DNA of 45,020 nucleotides, taken from IMG/VR virus record IMGVR_UViG_3300005939_000012; one strand, 5' to 3'. The position numbers were made by a program, and so were the translations under genes. Under the pieces are notes generated by a model. That model was not told where the DNA came from, did no database searches, and saw only the letters and a list, made by a program, of their open reading frames with translations. The stretch's first letter is position 1, and each line of letters begins with the position of its first letter. Source of the stretch: a virus. Shown in pieces: positions 26,944-42,515 of this stretch.

Positions 26944-27450
26944 ATGAAAAAACTTCACGACGTATTTATGAAAACAGCTTTTCTTTTTGCAGAGAAAAGT
27001 AAATGTGTTAGTCATCATGTTGGAGCTGTTGTTGTAAAAAATAATAGAATCATCATTAGTGGAATTAATGGTTCTCCAACTGGATTGCCAAATTGCTGTG
27101 AAATATTTGATAAGAATAAGTTTGATAGAGAAGAACATCATGTTTGGTCTAAAGATAATGAGATCCATGCAGAGATGAACACTATTGCCTTTGCAGCTAA
27201 ACATAATGTTGAATTAGATGGATGTGATATCTATGTTACAATTTCTCCATGTAATGAATGTCTTAAAAATCTAGTTCCTACGGGGATTACGAATGTTTAT
27301 TTCTTATATCCTTATGATAAATCTACATTGAATCCGGTAATACTTCAAAAACTTAATGTTGTAGAAGTTCCCGGGGCTAAAGAAATAAAAGAATGGGTGG
27401 AAGGCAATGATTTGCTATACATACCAAAACAAAAACAACTTAAAAAATAA
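26944..27450 (+). CDS. dCMP/cytidine deaminase family protein
   Basis: HAEMNTI...PCNEC is the CDA-fold zinc-binding motif. Confidence 0.7.
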   Translation: MKKLHDVFMKTAFLFAEKSKCVSHHVGAVVVKNNRIIISGINGSPTGLPNCCEIFDKNKFDREEHHVWSKDNEIHAEMNTIAFAAKHNVELDGCDIYVTISPCNECLKNLVPTGITNVYFLYPYDKSTLNPVILQKLNVVEVPGAKEIKEWVEGNDLLYIPKQKQLKK

Positions 27451-27462
27451 ATCCCCCGATAT

Positions 27463-27492
27463 TTTTTCGTGTCAATTAAATTGGTTATATTA
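27463..27492 (+). promoter_or_regulatory. promoter-like motif, CGTGTC-box variant
   Basis: TTTTTTCGTGTCAATTAAATTGGTTATATTA. Confidence 0.45.
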
Positions 27493-27515
27493 TTCATGTA
27501 ATAAAATAAACAGTT

Positions 27516-27734
27516 ATGGTTACAAACGAAACTTTATTAGAATGGTATATGAAGGGATTCGACGACGAATTAGATGGGACATCTTCCTTAATGTCAAAGC
27601 ATGAGTCGTTGAATATTGCATATAACGTCGGAGCATTAGATGCTGAATATGGTGACGATGATACTGAAACTGATTACATAAGTGATAGAGAATTATTGAT
27701 AAAAATTAAACAATTTGTTGAAAATGGAAAGTAA
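27516..27734 (+). CDS. hypothetical acidic protein
   Basis: 72 aa. Confidence 0.35.
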   Translation: MVTNETLLEWYMKGFDDELDGTSSLMSKHESLNIAYNVGALDAEYGDDDTETDYISDRELLIKIKQFVENGK

Positions 27735-28602
27735 AATTAATTACGAATCAGCAATCAAAAACATTAGGTCAGAGCTTAAAACTTACTTAGTTGATAGTAA
27801 CCTAAAGTCTGTAGTACTCGGTGTATCTGGGGGCATCGATAGCACCCTCTGTGCATTGCTAGCCCAACCAGTTTGTCATGATTTAAACATCCCCTTAATT
27901 GGTAGATCCCTACCATCAAGTTCTAATTCAGAAGGTGAAAATACAAGAGCCATGGTAATTGGGGACTTATTTTGCGATAATTTCAAAGAAGTAAATATTA
28001 GTCGACAAACTGACAGTCTTATTCATTTAGTAGACGAACCTTATCATAATCAAGATGAATCGTGGCGGTTGTATGCTGAGGAACGTGCCATTCAAAATGG
28101 TAATGTTAAAGCTAGAGTTCGAATGATTTATCTTTATGATTTAGCAAGTATAAATCAAGGTGTTGTTCTTTCTACTGATAATTGGACAGAATATCTTCTT
28201 GGTTTTTGGACATTGCATGGAGATGTAGGAGATTATGGGATGGTACAAAGTCTGTGGAAAACAGAGGTTTATGAAATGTCTGATTGGATTGTAAAAAATG
28301 AATTAACATCAGATTTTGTAAAAGAAGCAGTTCAAGAGGTAATAAATGCGGATGCTACTGATGGTCTTGGTATTTCAAAATCTGATATGGATCAAATTAT
28401 GCCCGGGTGGAAAGGAAGTTCCAGAGCTGGATATGCAGAAGTTGATAAAATACTTATGAAAGCAGTTGATCTTGTAAAATTTCCAAAATCATTAGCAAAA
28501 AGATATCCCGAATCTCATCCTGTTATTGATAGACATTTAAGAACTGAATTTAAGAGACATAATCCTCTTAATATTTCAAGAGAAAATATTATAAATAAAT
28601 AA
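27715..28602 (+). CDS. nadE: NAD+ synthetase (NadE-type)
   Basis: VLGVSGGIDSTLCALLA is a PP-loop SGGxDS ATP pyrophosphatase motif. Confidence 0.75.
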   Translation: MLKMESKINYESAIKNIRSELKTYLVDSNLKSVVLGVSGGIDSTLCALLAQPVCHDLNIPLIGRSLPSSSNSEGENTRAMVIGDLFCDNFKEVNISRQTDSLIHLVDEPYHNQDESWRLYAEERAIQNGNVKARVRMIYLYDLASINQGVVLSTDNWTEYLLGFWTLHGDVGDYGMVQSLWKTEVYEMSDWIVKNELTSDFVKEAVQEVINADATDGLGISKSDMDQIMPGWKGSSRAGYAEVDKILMKAVDLVKFPKSLAKRYPESHPVIDRHLRTEFKRHNPLNISRENIINK

Positions 28603-28616
28603 CACATACACATATT

Positions 28617-40250: not shown

Positions 40251-40350
40251 AAGGTAAAGGAGTTTTGTTGATAGGATTTTTATGGTCATTACTTAATTTG
40301 GCAGGATATTTACTTTTTGATGTAACTGGATTGTTGATAGTAAACTGGTC

Positions 40351-40647
40351 ATGTATAGCAATCATCTGGTTTGGAAGAAAAAAATTAATAAAAGCGTTAA
40401 ACATATGAATGTAAAAGAACTAAAAGAAATTATCAAAAACTTGCCAGATGATATGCAAGTTATAGTACAAAGAGATGCAGAAGGAAATGGATATGAGATT
40501 GCTCAAGGAGCAGATCCTGAATGTGTTTATAAAGAAAGTGAAAGTGAAATTTATAATCTTGCATGGACAGCTGATGACGCTTGTATGGAAGAGGATGAAT
40601 GGAAAGAAATTTGTAGCAAACCAAGATGCTTAGTTGTATACCCATAA
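40351..40647 (+). CDS. hypothetical protein
   Basis: 98 aa, with an alternative start at 40405. Confidence 0.35.
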   Translation: MYSNHLVWKKKINKSVKHMNVKELKEIIKNLPDDMQVIVQRDAEGNGYEIAQGADPECVYKESESEIYNLAWTADDACMEEDEWKEICSKPRCLVVYP

Positions 40648-40720
40648 TAAAAGGATTGTATCATGTCTTTTATGAAATGGTATAAAGTGGTTTTATTCTA
40701 TGAATATATAAAATAAAAAT

Positions 40721-41515
40721 ATGTTTATAAAAGGAAACCAAACACTTAGGATTAAAATTGAAAATTATAGAAATAAATGGTTTTATAAAAAAATTCTCGA
40801 AAAAGATGTAGAGGTTGGAGATGAATTTGATATTCAATGGACATTATTGAAAACATCATCACATAGAAGAGAGAAAATAGAAGTTATATGTGATGATTGC
40901 GGAAAGTTTATAGAAAAGCGTTTATGTGATTTAGATGAAAATATAAATGAACATTTTTGTCAAAGTTGTAATAGAAAAGGAAAGGGAAATCCGGCTTTTG
41001 GAAAACAAATGCCAGAAACTACGAAAAAATCATTAGAAAAATGGCGAGAAGAAAATGAAAATCCATTTACTTGGCCAGATGTAAAAGAGAAAATTCGAAA
41101 GAAAAATCCTTGGAAAATAGTTGCTGAAAAAAACACAGGTAGAAAAAACACTCCCGAAACTATTAAAAAAATGAGAATTTCTGCCATCAATTATATAAAA
41201 GATAAAAATGGTGGAATAACTCCAAGGTATAATTACAAAGCATGTTTATTTTTTGATAATTTATCTAAAGAAAAAGATTGGAATTTAATACATGCTAAAA
41301 ATGGTGGAGAATTTCATATTGAAGAATTAGGATATTTTGTAGATGCATATGATAAAGAGAAAAATATAGTCATTGAATATGACGAGGCAGCACATTATAA
41401 GAATGGAGAACTTATAGAAAAAGATAAAACAAGACAAAAAGAAATAATAGATTTATTAGAATGTAAATTTTATAGATATAATGAACAAACAAAAGAATTC
41501 TATCAAGTTAATTAA
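40721..41515 (+). CDS. homing-endonuclease-like protein, paralog of ORF 8811
   Basis: The C-terminal ACLFFDNLSKEKDWNLIHAKNGGEFHIEELGYFVDAYDKEKNIVIEYDE...LLECKFYRYNEQT is nearly identical to the 8811 C-terminus. Zn-binding C..C and NUMOD-like regions lie upstream. Confidence 0.5.
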   Translation: MFIKGNQTLRIKIENYRNKWFYKKILEKDVEVGDEFDIQWTLLKTSSHRREKIEVICDDCGKFIEKRLCDLDENINEHFCQSCNRKGKGNPAFGKQMPETTKKSLEKWREENENPFTWPDVKEKIRKKNPWKIVAEKNTGRKNTPETIKKMRISAINYIKDKNGGITPRYNYKACLFFDNLSKEKDWNLIHAKNGGEFHIEELGYFVDAYDKEKNIVIEYDEAAHYKNGELIEKDKTRQKEIIDLLECKFYRYNEQTKEFYQVN

Positions 41516-41528
41516 GGGTTTTATAATC

Positions 41529-42515
41529 ATGAAGGCAATGCCATTTCATAAAGGTCATGAGGCTTTAATTGAATACGCTAAAAGTAAATGTGATCATTTA
41601 ACAATATTAGTTGGAGCCAGAGAAGGTGAACCAATTCCACTTAAGTATCGTTTACACTGGGTCATCTCGACCTATATTAATGACCCCAAGATAACTGTAT
41701 TAGGGGATAATATATCTCACCCAGAAGACTTAAGCTATGATGATCTCAGTGTATGGTGGGGTAAGCATATTGCAGAAAATTTTGGTAAGTTTGATAGGGT
41801 TTTTAGCTCTGAAGATTATGGAGATTTCTTTGCAAAAGCTATGGGAGCAGAAAACTTAGTTTTTAATCAAGCCAGAACCATTGTTCCTATAAGTGGAACC
41901 ATGATAAGACAAAAGCCAATCACTCATTGGAATATGTTGAATAATTTTGCAAAAGATTATTACACAAAGAAAATTGCAATCGTAGGAACCGAATCCACTG
42001 GCAAAACTACTATGTGTCAACAATTGGCAGATCATTATAATACAGCATGGTGTCCTGAATTAGGAAGAGAATTAGTTCCTGATACAAGGGAATGTACCTT
42101 TAGTGATTTGAATTTAGTTGCTTCTGAACATGCCAGAGCTATTTTGAAACATACTCGTATGGCAAGGAAAGTTTTGTTTGTTGATACTGATGTAGTAATT
42201 ACGAAATCTTATGCTAAACATTTATTTAACAGAGATCTCAAAGTTCCTCAATGGGTAACTAAAGCAAATGTAATGGATGAGTATATTTTCTTAACTAAAG
42301 ACACTCCTTGGAAAAATGATGGAACAAGGATGCCAAAGAAAGAAAGAGATGAATTAGCTTTAATTCATAGAAAGGGATTTGATGATGCCGGAATAACTCC
42401 TACATTTTTTGAATTTCCACCTAACGATTATGTAGATCCTCTTGGATATGATGGATATGAGCATAGGTTAGCAAAAGTAATTGCACATGTTGATAAATTT
42501 CTAACTCAATTTTAA
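41529..42515 (+). CDS. NadR-like bifunctional NMN adenylyltransferase / ribosylnicotinamide kinase
   Basis: MPFHKGHEALI is the nucleotidyltransferase HxGH motif. IVGTESTGKTT is a Walker A motif in the C-terminal kinase domain. Start trimmed to the ATG at 41529. Confidence 0.7.
   Translation: MKAMPFHKGHEALIEYAKSKCDHLTILVGAREGEPIPLKYRLHWVISTYINDPKITVLGDNISHPEDLSYDDLSVWWGKHIAENFGKFDRVFSSEDYGDFFAKAMGAENLVFNQARTIVPISGTMIRQKPITHWNMLNNFAKDYYTKKIAIVGTESTGKTTMCQQLADHYNTAWCPELGRELVPDTRECTFSDLNLVASEHARAILKHTRMARKVLFVDTDVVITKSYAKHLFNRDLKVPQWVTKANVMDEYIFLTKDTPWKNDGTRMPKKERDELALIHRKGFDDAGITPTFFEFPPNDYVDPLGYDGYEHRLAKVIAHVDKFLTQF

Follow-up and report, generated by a model that had tools for sequence, protein, structure and literature searches.

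Gene content of the block

The stretch of viral DNA analysed here, hereafter the window, is 45,020 nucleotides long (IMG/VR record IMGVR_UViG_3300005939_000012) and carries between positions 26,944 and 42,515 a block of genes predicted to supply nicotinamide adenine dinucleotide (NAD+). The genes are tightly packed, with gaps of -35 to +82 nucleotides and several overlapping start and stop codons, and with one exception they lie on the same strand (Table 1). Homologs of PncA, PncB, NadD and NadE, which together would form the Preiss-Handler route from nicotinamide, are found alongside a NadR-like enzyme for the salvage of nicotinamide riboside (NR), a TonB-dependent outer-membrane receptor and a macro domain protein. 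We consider it likely that this is a lineage-conserved NAD+ supply island of huge phages, most likely infecting Bacteroidota, with two routes to NAD+. The activities, receptor substrate and purpose that we infer below are read from domain identities, motifs, gene order and its conservation, and from the linkage of receptor and nadR genes in bacteria and phages, all of which were observed directly.

Table 1. Predicted genes of the block, with their position in the window, strand and supporting matches (E-values)
Feature	Position	Strand	Evidence
dCMP/cytidine deaminase, left neighbour of the block	26944-27450	+	PF00383 1.8e-23
NadE, single-domain (NH3-type) NAD+ synthetase	27715-28602	+	PF02540 5e-33
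GIY-YIG/NUMOD3 homing endonuclease, free-standing	28998-29675	-	Pfam GIY-YIG 0.0047, NUMOD3 1.6e-4
PncA nicotinamidase	29699-30376 (longest open reading frame from 29654)	+	PF00857 isochorismatase 1.4e-21
GIY-YIG + NUMOD3 homing endonuclease	30407-31105	+	PF01541 1.5e-8, NUMOD3 8e-11
Mesh1/SpoT-like HD phosphohydrolase	31447-31965	+	phrog_990 3e-25
Radical SAM enzyme	32499-33440	+	PF04055 1.4e-9; CxxxCxxC at residues 16-23
PncB nicotinate phosphoribosyltransferase	34021-35220 (probable ATG start 34045)	+	PF04095 6e-58, PF17767 5e-35
PTH2 peptidyl-tRNA hydrolase, sole copy	35220-35654	+	PF01981 3.4e-24
MazG-like + NadD fusion	36443-37342	+	PF03819 7e-5, PF01467 6e-18
TonB-dependent outer-membrane receptor, 652 residues	37616-39574	+	PF07715 8.5e-11, PF00593 1.5e-20
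Macro domain protein, BT1257/SCO6735/TARG1/Poa1p group	39771-40250	+	PF01661 8e-5
Zinc-finger/NUMOD3-like open reading frame	40721-41515	+	weak NUMOD3 and zinc-finger-like matches; overlaps nadR start by 35 nucleotides
NadR-like NMN adenylyltransferase + ribosylnicotinamide kinase, no helix-turn-helix domain, 344 residues	41481-42515	+	NMN adenylyltransferase domain; AAA_28 7e-21

Enzymes of the two routes

The original prediction, made from the letters of the sequence, had placed PncA, PncB, NadE, a NadD fused to a MazG-like domain, and a NadR-like enzyme in this block. All five pass Pfam or NCBIfam searches, have best PDB matches in the families expected and retain their catalytic motifs. 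PncB has both the NAPRTase_N and the catalytic domain and scores above the cutoffs of TIGR01514 (423 bits against 269.55) and NF003704 (476 bits against 379), which answers the concern that it might be another phosphoribosyltransferase. NadE also exceeds its cutoff (TIGR00552, 105.7 bits against 63.65). Its PDB matches are NH3-dependent NAD synthetases, including 5wp0 (4e-16), and the SGGxDS motif is present in the translation. PncA matches PRK11609 with 3e-34, which is under the cutoff of that model. Its top PDB matches are all nicotinamidases, including 2wt9 (1e-31), 1im5 and yeast Pnc1, and the metal-binding and catalytic motifs DWHP, WPxHC, KG and GxATDxC are aligned and kept, in agreement with a metal site and the Asp-Lys-Cys triad.

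The fusion protein consists of a MazG-like part (residues 1 to about 85) followed by NadD (about 89 to 295). The latter falls marginally under the TIGR00482 cutoff (110 bits against 112.45), has NadD of B. subtilis as its best PDB match (1kam, 5e-17), and carries the motifs TKGH and ISSTQIR. At least 120 metagenomic clusters retain the fusion, with 62–89% identity and on contigs of up to 678 kilobases (kb), whereas the neighbouring genes are less conserved (37–70% identity). None of the matches listed had a source name of a cultured bacterium, and the fusion looks like a hallmark of these huge phages.

In the intracellular route PncA would deamidate nicotinamide, the product of NAD-cleaving enzymes, to nicotinate, to which PncB would add the phosphoribose of phosphoribosyl pyrophosphate (PRPP), giving nicotinate mononucleotide (NaMN). 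The NadD part of the fusion would then adenylylate NaMN with ATP to nicotinate adenine dinucleotide (NaAD), and NadE would amidate NaAD to NAD+.

The NadR-like protein would serve a second route, in which NR is phosphorylated to nicotinamide mononucleotide (NMN) and so trapped, and then adenylylated to NAD+. NadD prefers NaMN, and the NMN adenylyltransferase domain of NadR prefers NMN. The two adenylyltransferases would therefore not be redundant, which would explain why both are kept. The NadR-like protein matches TIGR01526 (7e-50) and PRK08099 (2e-40), under the cutoff in both cases. Its best PDB match is Bas30_86 (9X6F, 4.5e-31), with an alignment that begins at residue 12 and includes the HxGH-type, ISxTMIR and Walker A motifs, so that the assignment as adenylyltransferase and riboside kinase holds, with its start extended to 41481. 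Bas30_86 is the NadR of NARP3, without a helix-turn-helix (HTH) domain, which together with the PnuC-like Bas30_87 restores NAD+ against Sir2-HerA and DSR1 (Yan et al. 2026, Sci Adv; PMC13464706). The reconstruction of both a Preiss-Handler pathway from nicotinamide and an NR salvage pathway, as originally predicted, is thus supported by profiles and motifs.

A TonB-dependent receptor linked to NadR

The original prediction had overlooked the gene that separates the NadD fusion from the macro gene. It encodes a TonB-dependent receptor with an N-terminal plug and a C-terminal barrel domain of the 22-strand type. Judged by eye, the translation has a signal peptide (MKNLFIVILLFIGSVVFAQ...), a TonB-box-like NVNEVTVTG and a C-terminal ...LKYSF ending in Phe. 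It aligns at 100% coverage with bacterial receptors of 650–670 residues, and its full-length homologs, 36–41% identical, are all from Bacteroidota.

The genomic surroundings of these homologs were inspected in a scan that used one genome per species and gave 536 relatives, the best 80 of which are counted here. A nadR-like gene, alone or behind pnuC, is located directly downstream of the receptor gene in 73 of the 80 loci, and PnuC is encoded between receptor and NadR in 54. NrtR/Nudix is found upstream of the receptor in 17 loci and NAMPT near it in 13; NADAR or KptA also occur nearby in some. Gene orders include NrtR, receptor, PnuC and NadR in Flammeovirga aprica, where the genes overlap; NrtR, Nudix, NAMPT, NADAR, receptor, NadR-like and KptA in Paraflavitalea soli; and a receptor followed by a NadR-like gene in Hymenobacter. 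A larger arrangement is that of a Bacteroidales metagenome-assembled genome (MAG), where the order PncB-NADAR-Macro-NadE-NrtR-receptor-PnuC-NadR occupies positions 2203-10381 of a 270-kb contig (locus L053; L-numbers are labels of the compared loci and contigs), with a radical SAM gene adjoining on the opposite strand. The proteins of this locus are 35–52% identical to those of the window, and the phage block may have come from a source similar to this "super-operon".

The same linkage is seen in viruses. All ten viral-type loci with the receptor that were examined (eight from IMG/VR, and L116 and L117) have it among NAD genes, and four of the ten also have PnuC. The phage receptors are full length, have more than 100 invariant columns in common with the bacterial receptors, and group together as a single clade in 39 of the 40 bootstrap replicates of a neighbour-joining tree. 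Compared with the (NrtR-)receptor-PnuC-NadR operons of Bacteroidota, which have the same receptor family and NadR as its neighbour, the phage version has a receptor clade of its own and has lost NrtR and, in the sublineage of the window, PnuC, and it is interleaved with phage genes and homing endonucleases. The nearest bacterial NadR sequences come from the same set of bacteria as the nearest bacterial receptors. In a phylogeny of NadR, made as a test of its co-capture with the receptor, a phage clade appeared in only 4 of 50 bootstraps.

From this context we infer that the receptor imports NR or a related pyridine nucleoside or nucleotide. The phage receptor would be placed in the outer membrane of the host and powered by the TonB of the host, and PnuC in the inner membrane, provided by the host or encoded elsewhere in the phage genome, would carry the riboside into the cytoplasm, where NadR would trap it. 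An even chance is what we give to the proposal that a phage-made TonB-dependent importer of NR (or NMN or NAD+) feeds PnuC and the phage NadR trap in this way, in parallel with the route from nicotinamide; the substrate (NR, NMN or NAD) is read from the genomic context alone. A similar organisation is found in the OMthi-PnuT system of Bacteroides thetaiotaomicron, where a TonB-dependent receptor and a Pnu transporter take up thiamine (PMC5613172, PMC6977713), and it consists of the same three tiers: outer-membrane receptor, Pnu-type facilitator in the inner membrane and trapping kinase in the cytoplasm.

The thiamine substrate of Bacteroides Pnu transporters paired with TonB-dependent receptors also suggests that the receptor may be unrelated to NAD+ and have a role in the uptake of another nutrient (iron, thiamine), in superinfection exclusion or in receptor masking. 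The homologs are annotated as "iron complex outermembrane receptor protein", and the sole NCBIfam match is to a haem/transferrin receptor subfamily, far under the cutoff. We nevertheless regard such a role as unlikely, since the gene following the receptor in those 73 of the 80 closest bacterial homologs combines NAD-specific NMN adenylyltransferase and riboside kinase domains, further neighbours are NrtR, NAMPT, NADAR and KptA, and NAD genes are present in every receptor-carrying phage locus. Neither thiamine pyrophosphokinase nor iron genes were seen adjoining the receptor.

Neither a TonB-dependent NR receptor nor an NR version of the receptor-PnuC-NadR operon was found described in a search of a literature collection with few subscription journals, and the papers on NAD-jumbo phages (PMC11662467) and NARP3 (PMC13464706) do not mention a TonB-dependent receptor.

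Conservation of the block in huge phages

None of 50,697 phage records was matched by the 15.6-kb block in a megablast search, and relatives were therefore sought via the proteins. These were found in the huge uncultured phages LR756500, LR756501, LR756503 and LR756511, in viral contigs from IMG/VR with lengths of up to 430 kb and in metagenome contigs of 263–376 kb. Genes identical to those of the window are carried by contigs from JGI and ENA that reach 57 kb. In the 735-kb huge phage LR756501.1/LR756503.1 a full-length PncB homolog (54% identity, 97% coverage) is encoded at 430260-431429 on the minus strand; nadD alone was named for this genome by Li et al. 2024 (PMC11662467).

A scan of IMG/VR seeded with PncB yielded 21 loci, which were compared by tblastn with the proteins of the window. 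The shared order is dCMP deaminase, NadE, PncA, (HD), (radical SAM), PncB, (PTH2), (MazG-NadD), (receptor), (macro) and NadR, where brackets mark genes that are not always present. It recurs in more than 10 independent viral-type contigs, among them contigs of 376 and 263 kb, the sources being IMG/VR and metagenome contigs of 260–430 kb, at protein identities of 40–75%. The clustering of NAD genes that the original prediction noticed is thus not a matter of chance. In two loci (L118 and L026) a glutamine-dependent two-domain NadE is encoded at the position of NadE, which suggests selection on the pathway step and not on the particular gene.

Interpretation as a probable NAD+ supply island

Several observations weigh against the island having the nature and function proposed here. 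No capsid, portal or terminase gene is present within the 45-kb window, and its assignment to a huge phage genome, as which we treat it, is based on the IMG/VR relatives and on general features. PncA, NadD and NadR score under the NCBIfam equivalog cutoffs, and their exact specificity is therefore not certain, and NadE, being single-domain, could act on NaMN in the manner of the Francisella type. In the NadR tree mentioned above the phage sequences do not hold together as a clade. Synteny within one phage lineage may in part reflect shared ancestry and not functional coupling, which concerns the genes for PTH2, the HD protein and the radical SAM enzyme. A weak point is the missing PnuC. A hidden Markov model (HMM) of PnuC, built from 57 sequences, gave a best E of 0.86 against six-frame open reading frames (ORFs) of the window and of 4.6 kb beyond it (L112), tblastn with PnuC of Flammeovirga found no match in the window, and a hydrophobicity scan of the window found no ORF with multiple transmembrane segments and of a size fitting PnuC. 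A copy of the host, or one elsewhere in the phage genome, would thus have to serve. Sister phages encode PnuC beside the receptor (L023, L026, L027 and L028), and the NadR of NARP3 by itself gave no phage rescue in E. coli (PMC13464706).

An ORF of 91 codons at 33442-33717 (+), directly upstream of pncB, has about three hydrophobic segments and is 97% and 83% identical to ORFs beside pncB in L002 and L004. It was considered as a half-PnuC or SemiSWEET-like transporter and dismissed, as neither Pfam, PHROG nor the PnuC HMM supported this.

That the window is not of phage origin at all, being a piece of some other element or of a bacterium with a small genome and having ordinary cellular NAD salvage, appears very improbable to us. 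Besides the absence of the structural genes named above, homologs of six of its genes in the Bacteroidales MAG locus and the label "MAG: bacterium" of some relatives would fit such an origin. The relatives of the window are nonetheless IMG/VR viral contigs and huge phages of the LR756500 type, and it has the traits of a huge phage: a GC content of about 31%, a plus strand holding nearly all genes, an array of about 20 tRNA genes (18–20, at 7543-23703), many homing endonucleases and an endolysin-like gene, while a T4 gp30.3-like gene is present in its relative L116. No ribosomal or other housekeeping genes were seen in the window.

The two routes could also be wired differently, with NadE acting as a Francisella-like NMN synthetase that converts NaMN to NMN and feeds NadR, and with the NadD fusion in another or a regulatory role. 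The Francisella enzyme is indeed among the PDB matches of NadE (3fiu, 3e-13), and NadD, just below its equivalog cutoff, carries a MazG domain for which there is no explanation. We hold this to be improbable, since ordinary NAD synthetases score better, NadD retains the (T/H)xGH and ISSTxIR motifs, and the MazG-NadD fusion is extremely conserved. Furthermore, three loci (L009, L010 and L013) have NadD and NadE without NadR.

As for the purpose of the island, it could be the upkeep of NAD+ during a long infection, the countering of NAD+-depleting defence, or both. The stable synteny across the lineage leans slightly towards a core metabolic role. A counter-defence role in the manner of the NARP pathways, as the original prediction had suggested, would mean that NAD+ is rebuilt after depletion by TIR, SIR2, SEFIR or RES-type effectors. 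PncA, PncB, NadD and NadE would recycle nicotinamide, which the NADase effectors have as their shared product, the receptor and NadR would add NAD+ from external sources, and the macro protein would process derivatives of the type of ADP-ribose (ADPR)-1''-phosphate. Consistent with this role, the closest relative of the NadR among solved structures is the NARP3 enzyme, NARP3 and NARP2 defeat such systems with NAD+ made from NR or from nicotinamide and PRPP, and NARP1 has a macro protein resembling Poa1p as a proven accessory, the macro family of the window matching Poa1p with 2e-10. The analogy with NARP2 and NARP3 keeps this role plausible and well open. On the other hand, the block keeps its synteny throughout a phage lineage, unlike a variable accessory island, the PnuC that NARP3 requires is absent from the window, and so are the Adps/Namat pair or Nampt that the macro protein would serve. 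Furthermore, clusters of this kind serve, in the reading of Li et al., to provide NAD+ in general for phage enzymes that consume it (PMC11662467). We therefore hold the counter-defence role tentatively, at somewhat less than an even chance.

Comparison with known phage NAD+ pathways

Much of the conflict between phages and bacterial immunity is fought over NAD+. To our knowledge, three phage pathways that rebuild NAD+ have been proven, all of them in phages of Proteobacteria or Firmicutes. The locus suggests that huge phages of Bacteroidota pair a four-step recycling of nicotinamide with an uptake that starts at the outer membrane, with a receptor of their own.

Clusters for the Preiss-Handler and NR salvage pathways have been reported from "NAD-jumbo phages" in an annotation-based survey (Li et al. 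2024, Microbiome; PMC11662467). These are jumbo or huge phages, many of them predicted to infect Bacteroidota, with clustered pncB-nadD-nadE and pnuC-nadR(-nadM), and some have two routes. Neither a TonB-dependent receptor nor a macro domain or MazG fusion is mentioned in the survey, whereas the window combines PncA, both routes, receptor and macro protein in one 15-kb block, and its receptor-NadR linkage could be traced to bacterial operons.

NARP3 has in common with the window a NMN adenylyltransferase and ribosylnicotinamide kinase without HTH and the principle of NR import followed by trapping as NAD+; the existence of the PnuC and NadR route had already been noted in 2024. It is a cassette of two genes, both of them required, from phages of Enterobacteriaceae. 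The window, in contrast, has no PnuC nearby, adds an outer-membrane receptor, belongs to another host phylum and has its NadR embedded in a full Preiss-Handler set.

NARP2 (Nampt and Nmnat; Osterman et al. 2024, bioRxiv 10.1101/2024.02.11.579819) likewise makes NAD+ from nicotinamide, PRPP and ATP independently of ADP-ribose, in two amidated steps via NMN, whereas the window would use four steps via deamidated intermediates. No Nampt was found in Pfam scans of the window, and tblastn with bacterial NAMPT gave nothing in the window and the phage loci.

In NARP1-AP the accessory protein Adpp, a phage homolog of Poa1p, dephosphorylates ADPR-1''-phosphate (Osterman et al. 2026, bioRxiv 10.64898/2026.01.28.702374). 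Here the likeness is a small Poa1p-related phage macro protein within an operon that rebuilds NAD+. The differences are that the macro protein of the window is closer to BT1257 and SCO6735, that ADPR is not a substrate of either of its routes, and that the pair of Adps (PRPS-like) and Namat (Nampt-like) was not found in Pfam scans of all ORFs of at least about 250 codons and most of those of at least 100.

The claim that the enzymology differs from NARP1 and NARP2 thus stands, and this enzymology has been described before, by Li et al. 2024 and with NARP3 (2026): the idea was right in substance and is no longer new. What appears to be new is a phage-encoded receptor tied to NadR, with its origin in a widespread operon of Bacteroidota. 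The same holds for the MazG-NadD fusion and for a single conserved block that unites the two routes with genes for macro, HD and radical SAM proteins. The receptor linkage, the fusion, the Mesh1-like HD gene and the radical SAM gene were not mentioned in the papers that were searched.

Should NR prove to be the substrate of the receptor, the control that viruses exert over host metabolism would include transport across the envelope. Among virus-encoded TonB-dependent transporters it would then be the first to which a vitamin is assigned as substrate, and it would extend NARP3 to three tiers. An outer-membrane NR receptor family of Bacteroidota would also be identified, giving a function to a widespread family now labelled "iron complex receptor", and there would be a component to test in the exchange of vitamin B3 within gut and environmental communities. 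Further leads into the NAD-linked biochemistry of phages come from the highly conserved MazG-NadD fusion and from the genes for the Mesh1-like and radical SAM proteins.

Accessory genes

The macro domain was correctly recognised in the original prediction. Its single-sequence match is weak; the profile of its family is clear, with PDB matches to BT1257 (4e-42), SCO6735 (2.5e-31), TARG1 (2e-12), Poa1p (the value given above) and DarG (5e-10). An invariant IGxGLxGG segment, the phosphate-binding loop, is present. The gene is translationally coupled to that of the receptor via an ORF of 66 codons, with overlapping start and stop codons. A homolog in the Bacteroidales locus L053 is 45% identical, and macro proteins of this type occur in 2,943 of the 50,697 phage records. 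The protein probably clears or recycles derivatives of ADP-ribose, or it may remove ADP-ribosyl marks, roles that are suggested by the lack of an Adps/Namat partner in the window. It was also considered as an anti-DarT factor, and this was set aside, as the only result from PADLOC, a weak DarG-like match, was insufficient.

Two genes between pncA and pncB had escaped notice in the original prediction. The HD protein has human HDDC3/MESH1 as its best PDB match (3nr1, 7e-4), followed by Rel/SpoT hydrolase domains, and MESH1 dephosphorylates NADP(H) to NAD(H) in vitro. It may thus be a (p)ppGpp hydrolase or an NADP(H) phosphatase. Homologs are present in the NAD blocks of L004, L005, L011 and L023. 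The radical S-adenosylmethionine (SAM) gene keeps its position in L005, L006, L116 and L118, and a homolog that is 35% identical lies beside nadR in the Bacteroidales locus. It gave no sequence match in the PDB. An AlphaFold2 model (pLDDT 82.5) comes closest to viperin-like enzymes and MoaA (E 7e-10, TM 0.5-0.6), a likeness at the generic fold level only, and no function was assigned from it. In the 376-kb relative L116 (7705-8927) a 99-residue acyl-carrier-type PP-binding protein overlaps the start of the radical SAM gene, which hints that the enzyme may use a carrier-bound substrate.

PTH2 is translationally coupled to pncB, follows it in L002, L003, L004, L024, L116 and L118, and has no evident role in NAD metabolism. 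Of the two PTH2 genes that had been predicted, this one is confirmed and the second is not: tblastn of PTH2 against the window returns only itself, and the ORF at 35920-36360 matches only phrog_12005, a family of unassigned function. The deaminase to the left of the block belongs to nucleotide metabolism and is not an NAD enzyme; it is found in the same place in L005, L006, L008, L023, L116 and L118.

Homing endonucleases

Three GIY-YIG endonucleases had been predicted in the block, two of them flanking pncA on opposite strands. These two were found again. The upstream one, alone in the block on the minus strand, has a weak Pfam score but shares 42% identity with the downstream one, and it is absent from the matching place in L005, L116 and L118. 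The downstream one has paralogues at 1441-2103 and 11505-12308. The third, directly upstream of nadR, is probably a mobile endonuclease, yet not one with a GIY-YIG domain: it has no match to PF01541, tblastn with both GIY-YIG proteins gave an E of 5.7 in the NUMOD3-like part, and its PDB profile matches are zinc-finger noise. It has a paralogue, 50% identical, at 8811-9566, and homologs are located directly upstream of nadR in L002, L024, L027 and L028.

The whole window holds at least eight free-standing genes of endonuclease type. In addition to the three of Table 1 and the three paralogues just named, these are located at 10157-10936 and 21936-22577. They are of four kinds, namely GIY-YIG, HNH with NUMOD3, DUF559/REase, and the zinc-finger/NUMOD3-like type in two copies, and their presence varies among relatives. 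Their spread over the window and their variability mark them as independent selfish insertions and not as a sign of recent movement of the module, which the original prediction had read from them; nor is such movement supported by the gene order, which is conserved among huge-phage contigs with proteins of only 50–70% identity.

Other features of the window

Inside the tRNA array, an ORF-poor and GC-richer segment at 13.7–17.4 kb contains a GOLLD RNA at 15937-16422 (+; 154.7 bits and E 1.5e-41 for Rfam RF02032, whose gathering score is 150), in which a tRNA at 16011-16080 is embedded. A protein of 805 residues resembling the major vault protein (MVP) is encoded at 17804-20221 (+; MVP shoulder 3.5e-27, vault repeat 5e-12, Band_7), which is unusual in a phage, and a flotillin/SPFH protein of 516 residues at 3051-4601 (Band_7 2e-30). 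The tRNA at 23630-23703 (+) has a CTA anticodon and is a potential amber suppressor; TAG is the stop codon in 6 of 56 plus-strand ORFs, the MazG-NadD gene among them.

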